This document shows positions 1 through 64,000 of a DNA stretch of 64,000 nucleotides, in pieces. The translations under genes and the position numbers were made by a program. The stretch is from Hormiphora californensis (Eukaryota > Animalia > Ctenophora): the NCBI GenBank assembly GCA_020137815.1, contig CM035361.1:682001-746000 (forward strand), read 5' to 3'. Below the pieces are notes generated by a model. That model had not been told where the DNA came from. It made no database searches and was given only the letters and a program-made list of their open reading frames with translations. The first letter of the stretch is position 1, and every line of letters begins with the position of its first letter.

Positions 1-2628
1 TTCCTCGGTTAGGACTCCCGTGGAAGGTGGCTGTGCCCCACCTGACCCAATCCCTACCCCAGTATACCTTACTCCAGGTGGAAAGGAGCCTGCCCCCCCT
101 AGGGATGTGCCCCACCCTGAACCGGCCAATTCCCTACTCAGGTAGGAAAGGTACCTACCCATCCGTGTGGCTGTGCCCCCAACCCTACCCACGTAGTTCC
201 TCCCGGTGAAAGGTAGCCTTCCCACCGTGGAGGGGCTGCCCCAACCCTACCCAAGTTGCCTCCTCCTGGAAAGGTAGCCTGCCCCTCCTGGTGCCCCGTC
301 CCACCCTACCCCAGTGGCTGTCCCGCCTGGAAGGGTGCCCACCCAACCCAGTTCCTTCCTCAGGTGGAAAGCAGTGCCCCACCGTGGAACAGCCTGTCCC
401 CTGGAAGGTAGCCTGCCCCGAAGTCGCTTACCCCAAACCCTACCCAATCCTCGCCAGGTGGAAAGCCAACCCACCCCATTCGTCTGGTCCCAACCTAACC
501 CCATCCTCCTGGAAGGTAGGCCCCAACCCCCCCATCGTGCTTGCCCAGGAACGTAACCCCCATCCTGTAGGTGGAAGGGCCCACCCACCCATCCCCACCT
601 ACGCCAAGCCTCCCGCTGGAGGTGGCTGTGCCCCAGTGACGTGCCCCAACCAGGGGCAGTACCTCCCCTCCGGCAGGTGGAGTGCCCCAACCTAACCCAA
701 TCCTCAGCCGTGGAAAGCTAGCCCCCTCCGTAGTGGCTGGCCCCAACCTAACCCCATTCCCTGTCAGGTGGAGAGCCTCCCCCTGGAAGGTGGCTGTGCC
801 CCAAACTAACCATCCTCCTGCAGGTGGAAGGTGCCTCCCCTAGGTGGGGCCCCAACCCTAACCCCAATCCTTCTCCGTGGAAAGGGTGCCTCCCCCGTAG
901 GCTTCCCCAACCTAACCCCAAGTTACCTCCCTGGAGGAGGCTGCCCAACCGAGGCCATTCTTCACCAAGCGAAAGGAGCCTTGCTCCTCGGTGGAGGTGG
1001 ACCGCCCGCCTGAGCCATTCCCTAACCAGTGGAAGGATAGCCTGCCCTGGTAGGTGGGTGCCCCAACCCAATCCGTCTGGTGGCAAAGGTAGCCATCCCT
1101 GCGTGGAGGTCCCACCTCCCAATTCCTACTGGTGGAAGGCCCGTCCTCGGCTAGGTGCTCCGCCAACGTACCCCCTTCCCAGCAGGTGGAAGGTAGCCAC
1201 CCCCATCCTCCTCGGGGTGCAACCCTACCCAATTCCTACTTCCGGTGGAGGTGCCCACCCTAACCAATTCCGTCCCACGAAGACCTCCTCACTAGGTGGT
1301 AGGTGCCCCCCCTAACGCCATTCCTCACCAGTGAAACGCTTCCTCCTCGGGGAAAGGAGTCCCCAACCCTGCACCGCTTGTCCCAACGGAACCCCAATCC
1401 GCTCCCAGGTGGAAGCTAGCCCCAACCCACCGCAATGCCTGCCCGGTGAAGGTCCTCCAACCCTAGGTGCTGCCACTCTGGCAGGTAGCCTTGCCCCAGG
1501 TAAGGGCTGCCCCAACGAAGCTGCCCAACCACCAATCCTGCACCCAGGGTAAGAGCCGCCTCCGTCCGTGTGTGCCAACTAACCCATACCCCAGGTGAGT
1601 GCCCCGCCCAACTAGAGTCGCCGTCGCAAGGTAGCCATCCTCATGGTGGAACGTACCCATTCCTCCTGAGACTTCCCACCCAGGCAGTCCTGCACCTGAC
1701 ATCCTGCCAGGTGGCTGTGCCCCACCCACCCCAATCCTTACTCAGGGGGAAAGGTAGCCTCCTCCGGTAGTGGTGGCTGGCCCCAACCTACCAACTTCAG
1801 GAAAGGTAGCCTGCCGCCGGTTTGGTGGTGCCCAAGCCAACCCCAATCGATCACTGGTGGAAAGTACTGCCCGTATCCTGGAGGTGGTGTCCCCACCTAC
1901 CCAATTCCTTCATTAGGTTAAAGGACTGTCCCGGTGGTGTGGCTGTGCCCAACCTTAATCCCAGTCTTATATGAGGATATAGTGTCCTCTGGAGTGGTTG
2001 GCCCTAACCCCCCCATCTTACACAGGTGGAAGTGTAGCTAACCGCCTGGTAGGTGGCTGTCCCAACCTAACTCCAACCTTAGGGAAAGGTACTCTCCTCT
2101 GAGGGCTGGTCCCAGCCCTAACCCCAATTCCTTAAAGGTGGAAAGGTCCGTCTCTGGTAGGTGCTAGTCCCAAATAGACTAAGTCGTATTGTGGATGGTT
2201 TGGCTTGGAGAAGGGGTTGTGCAGACCTATAAATAGTATTAGTAAGGTCTGCCTTATGGTGTTTACGAAATTACTGTGTGTTGTTTTGTTTGGTTGGATT
2301 TTAGATGATCTGTCGGTGTTGGTTTATGTGCGCCAATGCTACATAAGGCCTGACTTTTAAAGCGATTGATACAAGTCCAACATAGTCTAACTCAGGGGAT
2401 CTTAACTTAAATGTGCAACTCTAACCAAACAAGGTAAAGGTAGGGCTCATCCGATGAAATCTAATAACCTAAAAAAAAAAATTTTTTTTTTTTTCCCAAC
2501 CTACCCATTCCTTACTCAGTGAAAGGTAGCCATCTGGGTAGGTGGGTTGCACGACCGGATTGGTTCATAGGGTGAAGGATTTGTACCGCTGAGGTCGGGT
2601 GGTGCCCAAAATACCAGGGGTTAGTCAC

Positions 2629-2673
<45 letters not shown>

Positions 2674-2690
2674 ACCTAACCTAACCAATT
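1..2690. other. Low-quality (likely unpolished long-read) duplicate of the 68-bp satellite, LDLa exon and following intron
   Basis: 1-~2170 is an indel-riddled version of the 68-bp unit. ~2170-2410 is a garbled, collinear copy of 6685-7000 (e.g. 'ggatggtttgg...gcagacctataaat', 'agtccaacatagtctaactcagggga'). Long A/T homopolymer runs occur at 2471-2494 and 2628-2673. Confidence 0.75.
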
Positions 2691-5600
2691 CCTTCATCAG
2701 GTGGAAAGGTAGCCTGCCGCTGTAGTGGCTGGCCCCAACCCTAACCCAATTCCCTCACTCAGGTGGAAAGGTAGCCTGTCCTCCTGGTAGGAGGTGGCTG
2801 TGCCCCAACCCTAACCCCAATTCCTTCACTCAGGTGGAAAGGTAGCCTGTCCCTCCTGGTAGGTGGCTGTGCCCCAACCCTAACCCCAATTCCTTCACTC
2901 AGGTGGAAAGGTAGCCTGCCCGCCTGGTAGGTGGCTGTGCCCCAACCCTAACCCCAATTCCTTCACTCAGGTGGAAAGGTAGCCTGCCCGCCTGGTAGGT
3001 GGCTGTGCCCCAACCCTAACCCCAATTCCTTCACTCAGGTGGAAAGGTAGCCTGCCCGCCTGGTAGGTGGCTGTGCCCCAACCCTAACCCCAATTCCTTC
3101 ACTCAGGTGGAAAGGTAGCCTGCCCGCCTGGTAGGTGGCTGTGCCCCAACCCTAACCCCAATTCCTTCACTCAGGTGGAAAGGTAGCCTGCCCGCCTGGT
3201 AGGTGGCTGTGCCCCAACCCTAACCCCAATTCCTTCACTCAGGTGGAAAGGTAGCCTGCCCGCCTGGTAGGTGGCTGTGCCCCAACCCTAACCCCAATTC
3301 CTTCACTCAGGTGGAAAGGTAGCCTGCCCGCCTGGTAGGTGGCTGTGCCCCAACCCTAACCCCAATTCCTTCACTCAGGTGGAAAGGTAGCCTGCCCTCC
3401 TGGTAGGTGGCTGTGCCCCAACCCTAACCCCAATTCCTTCACTCAGGTGGAAAGGTAGCCTGCCCGCCTGGTAGGTGGCTGTGCCCCAACCCTAACCCCA
3501 ATTCCTTCACTCAGGTGGAAAGGTAGCCTGCCCGCCTGGTAGGTGGCTGTGCCCCAACCCTAACCCCAATTCCTTCACTCAGGTGGAAAGGTAGCCTGCC
3601 CTCCTGGTAGGTGGCTGTGCCCCAACCCTAACCCCAATTCCTTCACTCAGGTGGAAAGGTAGCCTGCCCGCCTGGTAGGTGGCTGTGCCCCAACCCTAAC
3701 CCCAATTCCTTCACTCAGGTGGAAAGGTAGCCTGTCCTCCTGGTAGGTGGCTGTGCCCCAACCCTAACCCCAATTCCTTCACTCAGGTGGAAAGGTAGCC
3801 TGCCCGCCTGGTAGGTGGCTGTGCCCCAACCCTAACCCCAATTCCTTCACTCAGGTGGAAAGGTAGCCTGTCCCTCCTGGTAGGTGGCTGTGCCCCAACC
3901 CTAACCCCAATTCCTTCACTCAGGTGGAAAGGTAGCCTGCCCGCCTGGTAGGTGGCTGTGCCCCAACCCTAACCCCAATTCCTTCACTCAGGTGGAAAGG
4001 TAGCCTGCCCGCCTGGTAGGTGGCTGTGCCCCAACCCTAACCCCAATTCCTTCACTCAGGTGGAAAGGTAGCCTGCCCGCCTGGTAGGTGGCTGTGCCCC
4101 AACCCTAACCCCAATTCCTTCACTCAGGTGGAAAGGTAGCCTGCCCGCCTGGTAGGTGGCTGTGCCCCAACCCTAACCCCAATTCCTTCACTCAGGTGGA
4201 AAGGTAGCCTGCCCTCCTGGTAGGTGGCTGTGCCCCAACCCTAACCCCAATTCCTTCACTCAGGTGGAAAGGTAGCCTGCCCGCCTGGTAGGTGGCTGTG
4301 CCCCAACCCTAACCCCAATTCCTTCACTCAGGTGGAAAGGTAGCCTGCCCTCCTGGTAGGTGGCTGTGCCCCAACCCTAACCCCAATTCCTTCACTCAGG
4401 TGGAAAGGTAGCCTGCCCTCCTGGTAGGTGGCTGTGCCCCAACCCTAACCCCAATTCCTTCACTCAGGTGGAAAGGTAGCCTGCCCGCCTGGTAGGTGGC
4501 TGTGCCCCAACCCTAACCCCAATTCCTTCACTCAGGTGGAAAGGTAGCCTGCCCGCCTGGTAGGTGGCTGTGCCCCAACCCTAACCCCAATTCCTTCACT
4601 CAGGTGGAAAGGTAGCCTGCCCGCCTGGTAGGTGGCTGTGCCCCAACCCTAACCCCAATTCCTTCACTCAGGTGGAAAGGTAGCCTGCCCGCCTGGTAGG
4701 TGGCTGTGCCCCAACCCTAACCCCAATTCCTTCACTCAGGTGGAAAGGTAGCCTGCCCGCCTGGTAGGTGGCTGTGCCCCAACCCTAACCCCAATTCCTT
4801 CACTCAGGTGGAAAGGTAGCCTGCCCGCCTGGTAGGTGGCTGTGCCCCAACCCTAACCCCAATTCCTTCACTCAGGTGGAAAGGTAGCCTGCCCGCCTGG
4901 TAGGTGGCTGTGCCCCAACCCTAACCCCAATTCCTTCACTCAGGTGGAAAGGTAGCCTGCCCGCCTGGTAGGTGGCTGTGCCCCAACCCTAACCCCAATT
5001 CCTTCACTCAGGTGGAAAGGTAGCCTGCCCTCCTGGTAGGTGGCTGTGCCCCAACCCTAACCCCAATTCCTTCACTCAGGTGGAAAGGTAGCCTGCCCGC
5101 CTGGTAGGTGGCTGTGCCCCAACCCTAACCCCAATTCCTTCACTCAGGTGGAAAGGTAGCCTGCCCTCCTGGTAGGTGGCTGTGCCCCAACCCTAACCCC
5201 AATTCCTTCACTCAGGTGGAAAGGTAGCCTGCCCGCCTGGTAGGTGGCTGTGCCCCAACCCTAACCCCAATTCCTTCACTCAGGTGGAAAGGTAGCCTGC
5301 CCGCCTGGTAGGTGGCTGTGCCCCAACCCTAACCCCAATTCCTTCACTCAGGTGGAAAGGTAGCCTGCCCTCCTGGTAGGTGGCTGTGCCCCAACCCTAA
5401 CCCCAATTCCTTCACTCAGGTGGAAAGGTAGCCTGCCCGCCTGGTAGGTGGCTGTGCCCCAACCCTAACCCCAATTCCTTCACTCAGGTGGAAAGGTAGC
5501 CTGTCCCTCCTGGTAGGTGGCTGTGCCCCAACCCTAACCCCAATTCCTTCACTCAGGTGGAAAGGTAGCCTGCCCTCCTGGTAGGTGGCTGTGCCCCAAC

Positions 5601-6644
5601 CCTAACCCCAATTCCTTCACTCAGGTGGAAAGGTAGCCTGCCCGCCTGGTAGGTGGCTGTGCCCCAACCCTAACCCCAATTCCTTCACTCAGGTGGAAAG
5701 GTAGCCTGCCCGCCTGGTAGGTGGCTGTGCCCCAACCCTAACCCCAATTCCTTCACTCAGGTGGAAAGGTAGCCTGCCCGCCTGGTAGGTGGCTGTGCCC
5801 CAACCCTAACCCCAATTCCTTCACTCAGGTGGAAAGGTAGCCTGCCCGCCTGGTAGGTGGCTGTGCCCCAACCCTAACCCCAATTCCTTCACTCAGGTGG
5901 AAAGGTAGCCTGCCCGCCTGGTAGGTGGCTGTGCCCCAACCCTAACCCCAATTCCTTCACTCAGGTGGAAAGGTAGCCTGCCCTCCTGGTAGGTGGCTGT
6001 GCCCCAACCCTAACCCCAATTCCTTCACTCAGGTGGAAAGGTAGCCTGCCCGCCTGGTAGGTGGCTGTGCCCCAACCCTAACCCCAATTCCTTCACTCAG
6101 GTGGAAAGGTAGCCTGCCCGCCTGGTAGGTGGCTGTGCCCCAACCCTAACCCCAATTCCTTCACTCAGGTGGAAAGGTAGCCTGCCCGCCTGGTAGGTGG
6201 CTGTGCCCCAACCCTAACCCCAATTCCTTCACTCAGGTGGAAAGGTAGCCTGCCCGCCTGGTAGGTGGCTGTGCCCCAACCCTAACCCCAATTCCTTCAC
6301 TCAGGTGGAAAGGTAGCCTGCCCGCCTGGTAGGTGGCTGTGCCCCAACCCTAACCCCAATTCCTTCACTCAGGTGGAAAGGTAGCCTGCCCGCCTGGTAG
6401 GTGGCTGTGCCCCAACCCTAACCCCAATTCCTTCACTCAGGTGGAAAGGTAGCCTGTCCTCCTGGTAGGTGGTTGTGCCCCAACCCTAACCCCAATTCCT
6501 TCACTCAGGTGGAAAGGTAGCCTGCCCGCCTGGTAGGTGGCTGTGCCGCAACCCTAACCCCAATTCCTTCACTCAGGTGGAAAGGTAGCCTGCCCTCCTG
6601 GTAGGTGGCTGTGCCCCGACCCTAACCCCAATTCCTTCACTCAG

Positions 6645-28457
<21,813 letters not shown>

Positions 28458-28984: not shown

Positions 28985-30098
28985 TCTCTCTCTCTCTCTC
29001 TCTCTAGACTCTATCTCTTCCCTTCTATCTAAACTACTATCGAAAACTGGATCACGCGATCTAACTGGTAAAAAACGGACATAAAGAAATCAGATCTGAA
29101 TAATTAATGAAATACATAAATAAATAAATTAATAAATAAATAAATAAATAACTAAAAATCTGGTTAAATCTGTCATCTCTTCTTTAAATTAATAGTCGGT
29201 TTCAATCTATGAATAAATGACGCTTCAATAATTTTCCTGTATAACATTTTAGTCTCAGTTGCTAATATACTAAAGCTAAGATTCGGAGTGGTGTTTGGGT
29301 GGAAGGTACTGTAATGGAGTGCAGGGCTTTCTCTCTGTACGACTTCGCTGAGGAGAATTCGCACAGCGAAGATGCTCAGAGAGTCTTTCCTTGGCAGTCC
29401 TGCCCGTTTCTCCTACATACATTTCGCCACATAACACACACTCAATTTTATAAACAGGGGCAATAATTTGACAATGTCCGTCTGTAAGGATAGGGCAAAT
29501 TTTACAGTTCGCTAGATGGCAAGTTGGTAGTCCATCTCTAGGTCTAGAGACCTAGATTTGTAGACTTAGATTATTAGATTTTGTTATTAGCCATTTTAGT
29601 TATTTAGTTATTTATTTAGTTATTTAGTTATTTAGTTATTAGTACTTATTTTTTAGTCTTATATTAGTATTGCAGTGTGTGTACAGCTATGTGATTTGAT
29701 TTTAACCAATTTTCCAAATTTTGTAGGCTGAGGAAGATGTTGTAACATCGAAACTGTTCGTTAATAAAAACACGCTTTTCATTTTGTCCGATTGATTGAA
29801 GCCGGAAGGAGATATCATCCCAACAAACAATTAAAATCTTTACGTGCATGAAATAGTTCCTCATATCAAAATCAACTCGCTATGTAGCTATTAATCAATT
29901 ATTTAAATTTAACACTATTTATACTGCAGCAGACACGGTGTGTGAGAACAAGGGTGAATACTGTGAGGTCTGGGCGGAAAAGGGACACTGTGATAACCCA
30001 TACGTAACACTGAACTGTGCTCTGGCCTGTAAACTGTGTGTACCCAACGAAATTAATGCAGGTATGGAAACTTTTTATGTGAACCCTTCCCCAACAAA
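28985..30098 (+). repeat. ~1.1-kb duplicate of ~25330-26460 (Penelope part plus orphan ShKT exon at 29930-30061)
   Basis: Near-identical sequence differing mostly by single-base deletions. Bounded by (CT)n tracts on both sides. Confidence 0.9.
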
Positions 30099-30417
30099 AA
30101 GTCTCTCTCTCTCTCTCTCCCATATAATTTACCTCTATCTCTGTTTCTTTTCCTCCCCTCCCTCTCGTCTCTCTTTATCCCTCGTTCTCTTTCTTTCTTT
30201 CTCTCCATCCTCTTTTCTAAGCTGTCACACGAAATATGGTACATCCGCCTCTTGGCACTCCACCCCTCCATGCACACTTTAGACGCACTGTACTGTCACT
30301 ACCAGTAAACTTCCAGTAAGGCAGGATTAGGGGAACTGTACTGTATCTACCAGTAAACATTCAGTGAGGCAGGAACTGTGTTCTACCAGTGAAGATTTGA
30401 ATGTTGATGGTCGTATA

Positions 30418-32704: not shown

Positions 32705-33178
32705 CCTCTCTCCCTCTCTCTCCCTCTCTTTCTCTTTCCCTCTCTCTCCTTCTCTATGCTCTTTTTCTTTCTCTCCTAATTTCTCCGTCACCCCACTACA
32801 ATGTCAAACTAAGCAGATGTGGGTAGCTGAGTTCACTCCCGCGATGTATCTAATCGATCCCTAGTTTAATATCGTTATGGTATCTTCATCTGGTTTCATT
32901 ATTAATTAGTAAACTTAATTAATCTAGTTAAACTAGATCCAGATCTTTATTAACAAATGTGAGAGTACTCTGAGAGAAAGAGAGAGAGAGAAACAAATTG
33001 CGAAATGTTGAGATAGTAGTTTAGTTAAAACCACAACGATTTAGTCGTTACAGGGTTGCAGCTATTAAAAGTAAAATCACGAAACTAGAGCTCAGGTAGG
33101 TGAATGGTCGAGGTCAGGTAAATTTAGATGTCAATATCAGATAAATCTAGATATCGAGGTCAGATAAAAGGTCGCTAG

Positions 33179-33287
33179 CAGGAACCGACCGAAACAAGTA
33201 AACAACCAATCAGAACTCGTTATTTAGGTCACGTGACTGGTTATTAGCCAATCAGGGACCAGTATTTCCTGGTTCGGTCGGTTCCTG
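33179..33287 (+). mobile_element. 109-bp hAT-type MITE, copy 2
   Basis: Same TIRs as copy 1. 8-bp TSD GTCGCTAG at 33171-33178 and 33288-33295. Confidence 0.93.
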
Positions 33288-34103
33288 GTCGCTAGGTTGT
33301 AAAACAGGGCCTGTACAGTAGTATAGTGTGCACAGTTGGGACCCCTTTTTTGCCCTAACTGGGGCACCATTTTGTATGAACATATCACGCGACTTCTGAT
33401 TACCAAAATTATGCGGCGCTGGCAAGAGTTGTTCACTAGGATATTAGGAGCTCCGGCAAGGGGCCATGGAACAAGTTTGGCGCTGACAAGGGCCCACATT
33501 CGCGATTGAGATTTCTGTATGATGTCAATTTTTGTTTGGGATTTCTGTGTGATCTCACCCCTATCACATTACACTCCTACACAATGCATATAACTTTCTC
33601 TCTCTTTTCTCGTGCCAGGTGTTCTGATACAAATAATAAATTTACTCCAGCGTTCCTCTAATGTTCTTTTGTTATTCTTACCGTTCCAGTGACTTTTCGC
33701 TAGAAAGGAACGAGACGGGAACGGTGAAAATTACAAAAGAACAGCAACGGAACGTGTTTTCGTTAGATAGGAAAAGTTGGAAAATACAAAAGAACAGTGG
33801 AAATTAGAACGGAACAACAGCGGAACGACGGCGGAACAGTAAAATGTTGCAAAATTTTTCATAAACGAAAACATGCAGTAGATACACATAAACTAGGAAA
33901 CGTATTTTTACACAGGTGTTCTAAAAATGATTTTGTCGTTACTTTATCATTCGTAGTGTTCTTTTGGTGTTCCGGTGACTTTTCATTAAAAAGGAACGAA
34001 ATGGAAACAGTGAAAATTACAAAAGAACAACAACGGAACATATTGTGATTCACTGGAACAACACCGGAACAACACCAGAACAGTAAAATAGCTAGTTTGG
34101 AAC

Positions 34104-34110
34104 TATAAAA
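34104..34110 (+). promoter_or_regulatory. TATA box of mini-Polinton ORF1 (further TATA boxes at 34523-34529 for ORF2 and 35638-35645 for ORF3)
   Basis: TATAAAA, TATATAA and TATATAAA lie 34-41 nt upstream of the three ATGs. ORF1 and ORF2 share an initiator-like TTCATTTCT before the ATG. Confidence 0.7.
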
Positions 34111-34144
34111 GAGATTGCTTATTGCGTTCAATTCATTTCTAGTC

Positions 34145-34498
34145 ATGCCGAGATCTAATACGCGTCACGAGTCGTCTAAGAAAATGGGCTTAAGTGATAT
34201 TTCAGATCCAGAGTCTGACTCAGATATATCTCAATCTGATAGCGAATCTTCGGACCGAGAAAATACATACCAATGCTTGCTACACTGCTTTGCTTTCAAG
34301 CACGATCTTATTGACGCTGATATCAGCAAAGCTGATCTAACAGATCGCGAGAAACTTCTTGTGGACGCCATTAAGGAATCAAACTCATTAATTGAAATTC
34401 GTGAAATGCTAAACCAGAACCCAGAAATGTTTGATAATATTACGAACAAGCTGTTTCCGGAAACCTATGAAAATAAATGTCCTAACTGCAGTAACTAG
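34145..34498 (+). CDS. Mini-Polinton ORF1, 117 aa: acidic Ser/Asp tract, helical domain, C-terminal CxxC
   Basis: ATG at 34145 downstream of the TATA box. Open to TAG. The C-terminal part aligns by eye with ORF2. Confidence 0.7.
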   Translation: MPRSNTRHESSKKMGLSDISDPESDSDISQSDSESSDRENTYQCLLHCFAFKHDLIDADISKADLTDREKLLVDAIKESNSLIEIREMLNQNPEMFDNITNKLFPETYENKCPNCSN

Positions 34499-34556
34499 TT
34501 TCTTTCGATGTCATGCCATGGGTATATAAGGGACAACTATCTTCATTTCTTTACAA

Positions 34557-35294
34557 ATGGTAGCTTGTGACTTGTGTGACCAATCGTTCCCCTTCATTTA
34601 TCAACTCCTTGAACATAAAGACCTCTATCACAAAAAGCCTACGATTAATGAAGGTATGGATACCAAAGAACTACAGATAGATGAGGATTATCCAATAGAT
34701 GACACCTCTGCAGATAGCAGCGATAAAGATTCGGAAAACCCTTCACCAACACTTACTAAAGTTGTGAAAAAGCCTGAACTAAATTACAAGGAATTGTATC
34801 ATGTGCGAGATCAGCACGCTCGCAAGTTTGAACGTTTGTACAAAACAAAGCTGACGGAATCAAAACAACATTTGAGTCGCATTCGGTTATTTGAAAAGCA
34901 ACTCGATGAGTTTATAACAAATTTTAAGGACAGTACCTTTAACGAGTTTTCCGATTCAATAATTAACTCCAAAAATATTGCTGACTTTCTAGAACTCAGT
35001 CGATTGTTTGCTTCAAAGAAATTTGTCAAGGTTTCACGTAGTAACCAACTTTTACAAGCTATTAAAACGTTGTGTACTGGTCTAAAGTATGGTGTAATTC
35101 CACTTGTTGTTTTTCAGCGAAAGAGATTAAATGAAAAAGAACGAAAATTGATTAAATTAGTTGACAAAAAGAGCGTTGAAGATATCAAAAAATTATTTTT
35201 AAAGTATTCTAAAGAGTTTGCAAATATTTTCCAAGTTGTTGAAAAGACGCTGTTGCTTTTAAGAGATTTAGAAAATGAAAGTTTAAATGTATAG
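34557..35294 (+). CDS. Mini-Polinton ORF2, 245 aa: N-terminal C2H2 zinc finger, coiled coil, basic helical C-terminal domain
   Basis: CDLCDQSFPFIYQLLEHKDLYH is a C2H2 finger. Intact 738-nt ORF in AT-rich DNA with its own TATA box. Confidence 0.82.
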   Translation: MVACDLCDQSFPFIYQLLEHKDLYHKKPTINEGMDTKELQIDEDYPIDDTSADSSDKDSENPSPTLTKVVKKPELNYKELYHVRDQHARKFERLYKTKLTESKQHLSRIRLFEKQLDEFITNFKDSTFNEFSDSIINSKNIADFLELSRLFASKKFVKVSRSNQLLQAIKTLCTGLKYGVIPLVVFQRKRLNEKERKLIKLVDKKSVEDIKKLFLKYSKEFANIFQVVEKTLLLLRDLENESLNV

Positions 35295-35677
35295 TTAATT
35301 ATATTTCTTTTTTTTTTGAAAAAAGGTCTTTTTATTTGTTTTACAAATCAAAAACAAAGTAGGTTTTATTGTTCCAGTGAATCAAACATTTTGCAACAGT
35401 TTACAATATTTTACTGTTCCGCTGTCGTTCCGCTGTTGTTCCGTTCTAATATCCACTGTTCTTTTGTATTTTCCCACTTTTCCTTTCTAACGAAAAAACA
35501 TTCCGTTGCTGTTCTTTTGTAGTTTTCACTGTTCCCGTCTCGTTCCTTTCTCATGAAAAGTCACTGGAATACCAAAAGAACGCTGGGAATAACAGTGCTA
35601 TGACCCGTCGATAATTGAAGTAGAACATATCTTTGGCTATATAAACCGGTGTTACCATAATTGCTACCATAAGAATC

Positions 35678-36115
35678 ATGGACGCGTTTCTAGATACTGT
35701 GCCCGTCAAGTTTTGGGAGTTGTACCGGAAAAATTGGTCAACTATTCGTCAGCGTACTACAAAAGGCAAACTAAAAGATATTTATCATTTTCCACTGTCA
35801 CCCACTGATGGAATTTTTGGTAAACTAGATAAAGTCTTGGAAAACTATCAGAATGATATAAAACTGAATGTCGCATTCGGATTTGTTATGACAAACAAAC
35901 TTACTGGTGAAGTTAAATTTTATCACCCCTCTAATAACACAATGGTTTTTGAGACTGCTCAATTAATTTCTGGGCGAGAAGACGTTAAAAAAGTAAAAGA
36001 AAATATTGAACGGGAAGATCTGCTAGAAATAGCAAGGAGTTCACGCCCATCTACAGCATGGAAAGTCGAAGCTGTGGTCTGCATTAGATTTGATATAATG
36101 AAGATTCAATTTTGA
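35678..36115 (+). CDS. Mini-Polinton ORF3, 145 aa: stand-alone homolog of the N-terminal (terminal-protein-like) region of Polinton protein-primed PolB
   Basis: Motifs LYRKNWSTIR, KLNVAFGFVMTNKLTGEVKFYHPSNN and EDLLEIARSSRPSTAWKV match, in order, the recalled pPolB N-terminal consensus (LY..HW..IR; KIN.SFGF+L.N..TGE.RYY.SS.N; D.LE.AR..RP.SKW.V). Confidence 0.8.
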   Translation: MDAFLDTVPVKFWELYRKNWSTIRQRTTKGKLKDIYHFPLSPTDGIFGKLDKVLENYQNDIKLNVAFGFVMTNKLTGEVKFYHPSNNTMVFETAQLISGREDVKKVKENIEREDLLEIARSSRPSTAWKVEAVVCIRFDIMKIQF

Positions 36116-37877
36116 TATAACTGATAGCATTTTAATTATTCATTTATTTTTTCTCCAGAAAACCAGTCTCTTAATTTGTTTTATAGACACAAAGTTGTTA
36201 TGTTTTCGTTTATGAAACATTTTGCAACATTTTTCAATATTTTACTGTTCCGCTGTCGTTCCGCTGTTGTTCCGTTCTAATTTCCACTGTTCTTTTGTAT
36301 TTTTCAACTTTTCTTATTTAACAAAAAACCGTTCCGATGCTGTTCTTTTGTAATTTTCACTGTTCCCGGCTCGTTCCTTTCTAGTGAAAAGTCACTGGAG
36401 TATCAAAAGAACGGTAAGAATAACAAAAGAACATTAGAGGAACGTTGGAGTATATTTATTATTTGTATCAGAACACCTGCACGAGAAAAGAGAGAGAAAG
36501 TTATATATGCATTGTGCAGGAGTGTAATGTGATAGGGGTGAGATCACACAGAAATCCCAAACAAAAATTGACATCATACAGAAATCCCAATCGCGAATGT
36601 GGGCCCTTGTCAGCGCCAAACTTGTTCCATGGCCCCTTGCCGGAGCTCCTAATATCCTAGTGAACAACTCTTGCCAGCGCCGCATAATTTTGGTAATCAG
36701 AAGTCGCGTGATATGTTCATACAAAATGGTGCCCCAGTTAGGGCAAAAAAGGGGTCCCAACTGTGCACACTATACTACTCTGTACAGCTGCACACTCTAT
36801 AAACCCTCATCGACACACCTGCAGTAGTACTAAACACTGTGTAGCATGATCAGGGAGTAGCCCAATTAAATAGTAACATGATAGTTATATCAAGAACTCT
36901 AAATAAAAGCGACATATTTGGCAATAAATACTTTGGAGAAAACACAGATCCGTCAGCTAAATTGTAAACAACCTAAAATTTAATACAGAAGAGAGTTATA
37001 AAGGGGTCACCCAAAGAAAGGTAACCTACAGGATGAGCCATGTCTTTCCTACTGATAAGAGCATCTTGTTATTCGATCCGGAAATTTGAATCCCTCAAAA
37101 AAATCTTATTTTGGCTGCCTCACATTATAGGTGCTATCTCACAAAGAAATAGTATTTTGGGCTAATGGCTATTCCAGGTAGTCCAACAGCTGCTGAATAA
37201 ATTTTAGGAAAAATCTTTTGGTTTTCAAAGAAATACAATCTCCACTCTCAAGGAAATACCATTAGTCTGGAAACTTACAAAGTCTTTGAAGTGAGTAGTG
37301 GGATGTAGTGTGATGTATTTAACTGTAGCTACTGGAACAAAAGACATTGACTAATTTACTAATTCATTAATTAACTTAGTAATTGTATAGTTTGGATAGC
37401 GATATACATATACAATATTGATGGGCCATTCAAAATGAGCAGTGTACACGTGTGAAACATAAACACCGATAACAAATTGTTTACTTTATAACGGCTGTGT
37501 TTGCATTATAAATATATGCAGCAACCAGCTGCGTCACGATCTCACAATCTAACAAGTAACAATCTAGAAGGTAGTTACAATCATTATCAGCTACATGACT
37601 TGGTTATGTAGATTAGAAAATGAATAACAAATTAAATCAAGTAACCGTAAAATAAAAGCTGCAATTTGTCCACAACAAAACAAACAGACTTGATATACTC
37701 TGAGAGATCAAAGAGAGTTGTTGTACGTGGTGGGAAGGAAGAAGATTAGTGGTCAGAAATTTGTTTTTTCTTCTAGAAATTCTATAGTACTAAGAAGTGG
37801 GAAGAAGTTTTGAGTGAAACTATAATGATCACACATAGAGAGATATGAAACTATAATGATCACACACACAGAGATAG

Positions 37878-63313: not shown

Positions 63314-63560
63314 CAGGAACCGACCGAATCAGGAAATACTGGTCCCTGATTGGCTGATAACCAGTCACGTGACCTAAATAACGAGTTCTGATTGGTTGTT
63401 TACTTTTGTCGTTGTCGTTAGTTTGGACAGGTGGTTGCAGCGGTCTGCTATCTCACTACCAGGAACCGACCGACACAAGTAAACAGCCAATCAGAACTCG
63501 TCATTTAGGTCACGTGACTGGTTATCAGCCAATCAGGGACCAGTATTTCCTGATTCGGTC
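63314..63560. mobile_element. Two truncated copies of the 109-bp hAT MITE in opposite orientation
   Basis: 63314-63405 (reverse) and 63460-63560 (forward). Each lacks part of one TIR. Confidence 0.88.
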
Positions 63561-64000
63561 TGTTATCTCACTACATTCGTTTTCTGATTTTCTGAGTAAA
63601 GGAGCTAACTTAGTAATTAATGGATGAGCCGCCGGTGCAAGAGTAACCACAAAATTCAGAGACTCATGATTTGGAATCTAAGTATTCTAAGCTTTTAGTT
63701 ATAGTTATAGAGAAAAGGAGGTAGTAATCGGCAGCTGTAGTAAACATTTAGATCAGGGACTGATGACTGATGACAGAGCTCAAGGTCCTGAAGACAAGAT
63801 AAGAAAAGCGAGAGAACCTTTGAGGTTAATGGACTACAGCTGTGTTTATAGCTCGTGCTAGAGGGACAAATGACACAAACTCAAGGTACAAACTCAAGGT
63901 ATAAATAAAGTGGTTGTTCGATTTGAATTATTTGGATCGCAATACACAAAATGAGAATGTGTTTATTCTTTTGTGCTTGTGTTTTTCTTCTTTCTTGGGC

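Follow-up and report, generated by a model that had tools for sequence, protein, structure and literature searches.

A 3.5-kb non-autonomous Polinton of Hormiphora californensis carries a stand-alone homologue of the Polinton terminal-protein domain

What would an element without a DNA polymerase gain from encoding a protein that may prime one? The question is raised by a 3,463-bp element of the ctenophore Hormiphora californensis, which lies in a 64,000-nucleotide stretch of contig CM035361.1 (assembly GCA_020137815.1, positions 682,001 to 746,000, forward strand). This whole stretch is called the window here, and its coordinates are used throughout. A first-pass annotation had described a mini-Polinton and had proposed that the third of its open reading frames (ORFs), ORF3, corresponds to the N-terminal terminal-protein (TP) region of the Polinton polymerase, pPolB. 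We find that ORF3 is a homologue of the pPolB TP domain, as sequence, predicted fold and a hydroxyl residue agree, and that by its sequence it belongs to an old clade of stand-alone Polinton accessory paralogues, which we named TP2. The element and the features of its third gene are as follows.

33317 to 36779: non-autonomous Polinton/Maverick-type element, 3,463 bp
35638 to 35645, plus strand: TATA-like box of ORF3, 40 nt before its ATG, presumed promoter
35678 to 36115, plus strand: ORF3, 145 aa, intact, stand-alone homologue (TP2) of the Polinton pPolB terminal-protein domain
36053 to 36055, plus strand: Thr126 codon; the residue is predicted to link to DNA and sits in the loop that joins helix 112-121 to strand 128-142

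A homologue search with ORF3 yielded 15 relatives among 38 candidates, 14 of which cover 97-100% of the query at 46-92% identity. The profile built from these 15 relatives gave 1,301 matches at E ≤ 1e-3 among 1.84 billion representatives. The top matches are other proteins of ~145 aa, while the lower ones fall on the N-terminal region of long proteins; DNA_pol_B_2 lies behind the matched region in 5 of the 30 longer matches scanned. The profile also matches the N-terminal region of a 1,370-aa PolB in a metagenomic locus (L023), and hhalign to a pPolB N-terminus gives a probability of 96.5%. The D1 domain ahead of the vOTU domain in pPolB has been assigned as the TP (10.1101/2024.03.18.585575). 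Behind the TP match, the fused proteins continue with a PIG-type linker and then a vOTU-like Cys motif, and ORF3 stops just before that linker, as the first-pass annotation had suspected when it placed the end of ORF3 near the next domain boundary. TAF1 bromodomains, which appeared as PDB sequence matches of the profile (E ~1e-3), were rejected, being all-alpha against the alpha/beta model of ORF3, and ESM Atlas leads, unnamed or patatin, were not used. No Pfam family scored above cut-off for ORF1 to ORF3 or for the relatives of ORF3.

The AlphaFold2 (AF2) model of ORF3 (pLDDT 92.9) consists toward its end of a helix (112-121), a loop (122-127) and a strand (128-142). This arrangement is that given for the D1/TP domain, whose sheet of 4-5 strands, two helices and little-finger-like fold the model also shows. 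Its best matches in BFVD are PolB proteins of adintovirus, bidna-like and MELD type (E 5e-5 to 6e-3), which, together with the profile and hhalign results, bears out the proposed homology; Foldseek against the PDB returned no match at E ≤ 1e-3. For the D1 set, the linking residue has been placed close to a Gly or Pro, in the loop that connects helix 2 with strand 4, and named as Ser or Tyr (Krupovic et al. 2024, 10.1101/2024.03.18.585575). The corresponding loop of ORF3 reads Pro124-Ser125-Thr126, a hydroxyl residue with Pro nearby. At position 126, all 59 of the fused rows and 49 of the 52 stand-alone ones have Ser or Thr; the residue is Thr in ORF3 and in 25 of the 59 fused rows. The loop pattern R-P-x-[ST]-x-W is kept in 49 of 52 stand-alone rows over 25-90% identity, and a second hydroxyl, Ser125, in 47 of 52. 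A hydroxyl in the RPSTAW motif of ORF3 is thus retained, as had been claimed, with Thr126 rather than Ser125 as the aligned residue. Two further proteins, P0059 and P0068, each combine two TP-like domains with zinc fingers, and P0059 has no vOTU or polymerase behind them; these are possibly domesticated or duplicated TP domains.

Does ORF3 descend from a broken polB? In a quick tree of 120 rows, 52 of the 60 short rows form one branch (SH-aLRT 93) with no fused row inside, and the other eight, ORF3 not among them, nest among fused TPs. A careful tree compared 29 rows chosen from the 52-row stand-alone branch with 30 fused rows, leaving out the eight fused-nesting short rows, P0051 and P0172. 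It recovered the split with support 96/98, with a bootstrap that had not fully settled, and all fused rows had themselves been recovered with the ORF3 profile. Length in the TP2 clade is fixed at 135-157 aa (52 of 52), and a TATA box lies at most 130 nt upstream in 16 of 17 related TP2 genes examined; as background, TATAWA is present in 42 of 475 80-bp windows. The ratio of nonsynonymous to synonymous substitution rates (dN/dS) is 0.03-0.22 in all 14 computable pairs of related loci (16 examined, 2 saturated), among them 0.04-0.06 between the cassette-type copies L007/L010 and L008/L010. Eleven variants of ORF3 stand at 91-95%. Because ORF3 has its own clade, a fixed length, its own TATA box and relatives under purifying selection, it is not a broken polB; the earlier statement to this effect, with a start and a presumed promoter of its own, holds. 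An explanation by truncation could point to the end of ORF3, just before the linker into the vOTU domain of the fused proteins, and the eight short rows nesting among fused TPs may indeed be such stumps. ORF3 lies outside those eight, deep in the stand-alone clade, with its own ATG and a conserved stop position. An assembly artefact is in turn at odds with a perfect target-site duplication and with independent homologues of ORF1 to ORF3 in other data sets. That ORF3 is a truncated polB or the element an artefact is largely refuted, and we regard it as highly improbable.

The remaining features of the element bear on how it could move.

33311 to 33316: left target-site duplication (TSD), CTGTAC
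36780 to 36785: right TSD, CTGTAC
33317 to 33874, plus strand: left terminal inverted repeat (TIR), 558 bp, begins AGTAGT; its inner part (~33651-33874) is repeat module R1
36200 to 36779, minus strand: right TIR, 580 bp, with ACTACT at its end; the last 19 bp equal the element end of locus L012
33938 to 34090, plus strand: R2, a partial, diverged copy (~70%) of the inner TIR module, immediately 5' of the ORF1 TATA box
34104 to 34109, plus strand: TATA-like box of ORF1, 41 nt before its ATG, presumed promoter
34145 to 34498, plus strand: ORF1, 117 aa, intact, acidic N-terminus
34523 to 34529, plus strand: TATA-like box of ORF2, 34 nt before its ATG, presumed promoter
34557 to 35294, plus strand: ORF2, 245 aa, intact, C2H2 finger and helical domain
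35295 to 35594, minus strand: R3, an internal copy of the inner block of the right TIR, in direct orientation to 36132-36425 (83-85%)

AGTAGT and ACTACT are the first and last letters of the element. The two TIRs are 93% alike over 581 columns, with the outer 192 bp identical and 2 mismatches in the first 271, and CTGTAC on both sides is a perfect 6-bp TSD (the chance of this 6-mer at a fixed place is 2.2e-4). The size, ends, TIRs and TSD given in the first-pass annotation are therefore confirmed, and so are its three intact ORFs, which encode 117, 245 and 145 aa on the plus strand and have a TATAWA box apiece, 34-41 nt ahead of the start codon. Intact Mavericks are reported at 12.7-24.6 kb with TIRs of 46-1,447 bp, (AGT)2//(ACT)2 being the commonest vertebrate motif (Barreat and Katzourakis 2021, PMC8097293), and a 6-bp TSD is described for a lizard Polinton (PMC3014272). 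No empty insertion site was found within the 64-kb window.

Searching the window by tblastn with 15 proteins of related Polinton loci (PolB, integrase, ATPase, protease and accessory ORFs, with tentative fragments as capsid queries) gave a match at ORF3 only, through the TP part of a pPolB query. Genes for polymerase, integrase, ATPase and protease are therefore missing from the element. For the major and minor capsid genes, the tentative fragment queries gave no match, and 3.5 kb leaves no room for them; this agrees with the absences listed in the first-pass annotation. A TP-vOTU-palm-SF1 helicase fusion of the transpoviron/Tlr1-like type is also absent from the element, and Rfam and ARAGORN found nothing. 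The element thus works like a non-autonomous Polinton and does not belong to the autonomous family. With autonomous Polintons/Mavericks, as described for Mavericks and adintoviruses (PMC8097293; Starrett et al. 2021, PMC8502044), it shares the (AGT)2//(ACT)2 ends, the TIR size range, the 6-bp TSD and the TP domain. It differs in its 3.5 kb against 12.7-24.6 kb and in lacking pPolB, integrase, ATPase, protease and capsid. In autonomous Polintons the TP is the N-terminus of polB, whereas in the element it is a separate paralogue.

The inner TIR block recurs twice within the element, at 33938-34090 and at 35295-35594, a feature missed by the first-pass annotation, so that ORF3 is flanked by direct repeats (35295-35594 and 36132-36425). 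These could delete or capture ORF3 as an 831-840-bp cassette, leaving a 2.6-kb form without ORF3. A repeat of ~110-137 bp with inverted ends, resembling a miniature inverted-repeat transposable element, lies at 33165-33301, 15 bp left of the element, and three further copies at 93-97% occur in the window, including 12668-12776 and 63314-63564.

The other two genes offer some indication of what the element encodes besides its TP homologue. The model of ORF2 has an N-terminal C2H2 finger, a disordered acidic linker, a long helix and a helical domain, and 21 of 579 candidates are relatives at 44-94%. The best viral Foldseek match of the helical domain is GasderminX of Terrapene adintovirus (E 0.008, TM(target) 0.73, root-mean-square deviation (rmsd) 2.8 over 112 columns). 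Among 1,161 segments, a profile of this domain picks the small ORFs behind the ATPase in two TP2-bearing loci, L021 (E 6e-4) and L017 (E 7e-3); a narrower profile reaches E 0.068. The place behind the ATPase is that of the Maverick pm gene (PMC8097293), and GasderminX has been described as a virion accessory gene of putative function (PMC8502044). The C-terminal domain of ORF2 is likely related to adintovirus GasderminX/Maverick PM, judging from profile and model, and gene order would equate GasderminX with PM. A GasderminX/PM-like gene is thus likely another point in common with autonomous Polintons and adintoviruses. The C-terminal helices of ORF1 weakly resemble the end of the ORF2 helical domain at a level that is not significant (E 0.01-0.2), and ORF1 as a paralogue of that domain stays below significance.

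A EukProt gene model of Pleurobrachia bachei, P0221, is a cluster mate of the closest ORF2 relative and contains five ORF2 matches (92-93%) and three ORF1 matches (92, 92 and 76%). Unless the assembly duplicated it, the unit is therefore multicopy there. The model is 1,532 aa long, carries its three ORF1 and five ORF2 copies on one strand with ORF1 and ORF2 joined by a splice, and never includes ORF3. Elements clustered in tandem, a variant lacking ORF3 or a fault of the assembly may each account for this arrangement.

Where do relatives of TP2 occur? A metagenome scan gave 25 loci from 221 stretches, one of which, L023, is a fused polB. Core genes lie on the TP2 contig in five loci: integrase and ATPase beside TP2 in L017 and, by similarity, in L021; a C5 protease in L013; and PolB in L014 and L018. 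Five more (L009, L016, L019, L020 and L022) have neighbours in common with these, and the remaining eight (L001-L003, L005, L006, L011, L024 and L025) are short or ambiguous in context. L018 holds an interrupted pPolB with fused TP and vOTU Cys/His (138-3268, minus strand) and, 3.6 kb apart, a TP2 gene (6871-7341, plus strand). The two fall on opposite sides of the TP tree, and that TP2 is under strong purifying selection. The idea of a stand-alone TP gene thus stood as far as the separate gene is concerned; it is not special to a parasite, as it also occurs in Polintons that bear core genes. In L013 (379-1814), TP2 is directly followed by a C5 protease in convergent orientation and by what may be the C-terminus of a capsid protein, and L019 has the same left part but continues into other accessory genes; L013 is a rearranged or shortened Polinton.

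In six loci (L004, L007, L008, L010, L012 and L015) an ORF2-like gene lies upstream of TP2 (probability 90.6 and 93.3%), and the order ORF2-like gene, TP2, right end recurs in distant loci. Up to ATACTACT, which in L007 lies 444 bp behind TP2, L007 and L008 agree at 94%; they diverge exactly past it, so that different flanks are seen for related element ends. The last 19 bp of L012 are identical to the H. californensis element end although its TP2 is only 40% identical. All six of these cassette-type loci are without a left end, and three begin in tandem repeats. Tandem or palindromic arrays lie upstream of TP2 or of the zinc-finger (ZnF) gene in L001 (1-128), L003 (73-233), L004 (1-470), L005 (280-780), L007 (1-640), L011 (38-316) and L013 (211-336); like the R modules in the window, they are possible binding sites or origins. 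A reading of L004 and L007 as arms of perfect palindromic minis was not borne out: neither shows an exact hairpin at its centre, the longest arm being 18 bp in L004, with none ≥12 bp in L007.

These loci raise the possibility that the H. californensis element is a passive internal-deletion derivative. A TP2-bearing Polinton would have lost its core, and the three genes would be recent accessory leftovers near its ends, useless to a short element that would depend on helper proteins for any movement. In the five core-bearing Polintons TP2 is an ordinary gene, in L004, L007, L008 and L012 no other gene separates it from the right end, a 19,870-bp contig holds a close relative of the L018-type TP2, and broken copies exist: P0018 is a frameshifted ORF3 copy, and the ZnF gene is split in L008. 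Tip searches in viral and prokaryote collections, moreover, showed no second complete mini copy. The state of the element itself argues the other way, as its three ORFs and their TATA boxes have stayed intact despite a divergence of 8-30% among the inner TIR modules, and ORF1 and ORF2 are multicopy at 92-93% in the P. bachei model. The longest contig of the ~94% relatives of ORF2 and of ORF3 is 3,253 bp in each case, near element size, and that length is not exceeded by the contigs of 21 of 21 ORF2 representatives and of 38 of the 39 members listed for the eight clusters nearest to ORF3; this contig argument is weak because such contigs are mostly short. We consider passive deletion unlikely, yet a serious alternative.

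We instead favor a spreading family, which the element probably represents, and it seems fairly likely from sequence and model that TP2 acts as a primer. For the two together, a non-autonomous 3.5-kb Polinton whose free TP homologue likely serves as primer for the polymerase of a presumed helper, we would put the chances at about even. The element would have originated from the accessory region of a TP2-bearing Polinton and spread as a family. A helper integrase would have recognised its ends and made the 6-bp TSD, and helper pPolB would copy it from those ends. The vOTU domain is predicted to cleave off the fused TP (10.1101/2024.03.18.585575), so that each initiation would cost one whole polyprotein; the fused TP would be spent once per new strand, leaving a primer-less polymerase. 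Free TP2 could reload such released polymerases, and an element that makes TP2 would be copied from its own ends more often. ORF2 is likely a DNA-binding protein and might help to package the element in capsids of the helper, which is the weakest step. A wider version, in which primer-encoding satellites of animal Polintoviruses are widespread, is tentative and on balance somewhat unlikely. Here, parasites of ~3-6 kb would keep TP2 and a DNA-binding core protein and divert helper polymerase, integrase and capsids, and many marine-animal Polintons would carry a second, free TP that recycles polymerases stripped of their fused primer.

Several observations weigh against the primer-supplying satellite. 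Selection on TP2 was measured in related loci, not this element, and may act in autonomous copies. The six cassette-type loci lack left ends and hence may be right ends of full-size Polintons. The broken copies named above count here too, and the ZnF gene has a dN/dS of 0.78 between L007 and L010, not different from 1 in this one pair. In L018 the polB is interrupted and is joined with TP2 in one element by the contig only, and in L014 an intact-looking PolB C-terminus stands directly before TP2. A diffusible primer would also serve the helper, so that the advantage in cis is only assumed. Element tip patterns gave 0, 0 and 1 match in viral and prokaryote collections, with no relevant locus, be it a helper or a second full-length copy. 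Likewise, no relative turned up among the viral contigs scanned with ORF3 and its alignments, with ORF2 and with the ZnF alignment, nor among genome contigs and phage records. As for the fold, matches of the ORF3 model to Y-family little-finger domains (Z 5.3-5.8, rmsd 2.9-3.4 over 88-94 residues) are modest alone, as VIA Z scores below 8 are common for unrelated folds; the TP fold is held to derive from that little finger (10.1101/2024.03.18.585575). Solved PRD1 or adenovirus TPs are not among these structural matches, an absence that is uninformative. Finally, TP2 carries Pro at position 126 in 3 of 52 rows, its last strand reads C-x-R-x-D against N-x-T-x-Y in fused TPs, and its 145 aa, end-to-end with fused D1, come without the N- and C-terminal helical extensions proposed for polymerase docking.

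The single tip match, L026, a chance 17-mer, was dropped as an unrelated virus contig with terminase/portal-like genes. It also encodes a 1,895-aa protein with a ligase-like C-terminus, and its ORFs are presumably capsid-, prohead-protease-, portal- and terminase-like. A complex prediction of the L014 PolB fragment with the L014 TP2, run without alignments, scored 0.00 and is evidence neither way.

Some of these points would fit a real satellite family in which TP2 is not a primer. It would then be a diverged little-finger paralogue that binds DNA ends or the polymerase and regulates, protects ends or interferes with the helper, as defective-interfering elements do. Elements that perhaps already have a fused TP, such as L018, need no second primer, and the clade-specific changes in and around the last strand, the Pro rows at position 126 and the absent docking extensions are all compatible with such a role. 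A pure decoy, however, has less reason to conserve the R-P-x-[ST]-x-W loop with its hydroxyl, present in 49 of 52 rows, or Ser125, present in 47 of 52, and we judge a non-primer role to be decidedly unlikely.

Elsewhere in the window, a 68-bp tandem array of 59 copies (98% matches) occupies 2685-6687. Very long Thr/Glu-rich mucin-like exons at 7400-22900 and an exon with a ShK-like domain at 29857-30282 belong to a large secreted host protein. A GIY-YIG endonuclease fragment on the minus strand (25528-25908) is likely the end of a Penelope-like retroelement.

How does TP2 compare with other stand-alone TPs? In a polinton of the coral Stylophora, the TP gene is split from polB, which begins at vOTU (Krupovic et al. 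2024, 10.1101/2024.03.18.585575). As described there, this split TP, adenovirus pTP and PRD1 TP share with TP2 a stand-alone PRD1-like TP fold and a hydroxyl between helix 2 and strand 4 beside a Pro. Compared by description only, the coral gene is a split-off, whereas TP2 is a duplicate clade, L018 having both forms. TP2 also lacks helical extensions and sits, here, in a polymerase-less element. Transpovirons and yeast linear killer plasmids with a helper are, by the available accounts, likewise small and linear, have inverted ends and rely on a larger helper. Unlike the element, which of these domains has the TP alone and integrates with a 6-bp TSD, they carry a gene for a TP-vOTU-polymerase fusion. 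Non-autonomous derivatives of Polintons with few genes or none are said to figure in Kapitonov and Jurka's work of 2006 and in Repbase; they share with the element the Polinton ends, the TSD and the need for helper enzymes. A literature search, with subscription papers, Repbase and Fig. S6/Table S1 of Krupovic et al. outside its range, found neither a mini-Polinton with a TP gene nor a second paralogue of the TP. Already known were non-autonomous Polintons and a single split TP gene, and the firmest new point is the TP2 family.

The Polinton priming protein has so far been inferred from models of a domain inside a polyprotein of 1,200-1,500 aa. TP2 is a natural free version of 145 aa, with a predicted fold and linking residue, which makes priming of Polinton replication directly testable in vitro. 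A second TP beside the fused one suggests that primer supply can be uncoupled from polymerase synthesis, and it offers a way in which the separate pTP of adenovirus-like genomes could have come about through duplication and not through a split. Should the mini element be a satellite under selection, Polintoviruses of animals would join the giant viruses, with their transpovirons, in having parasites of their own.

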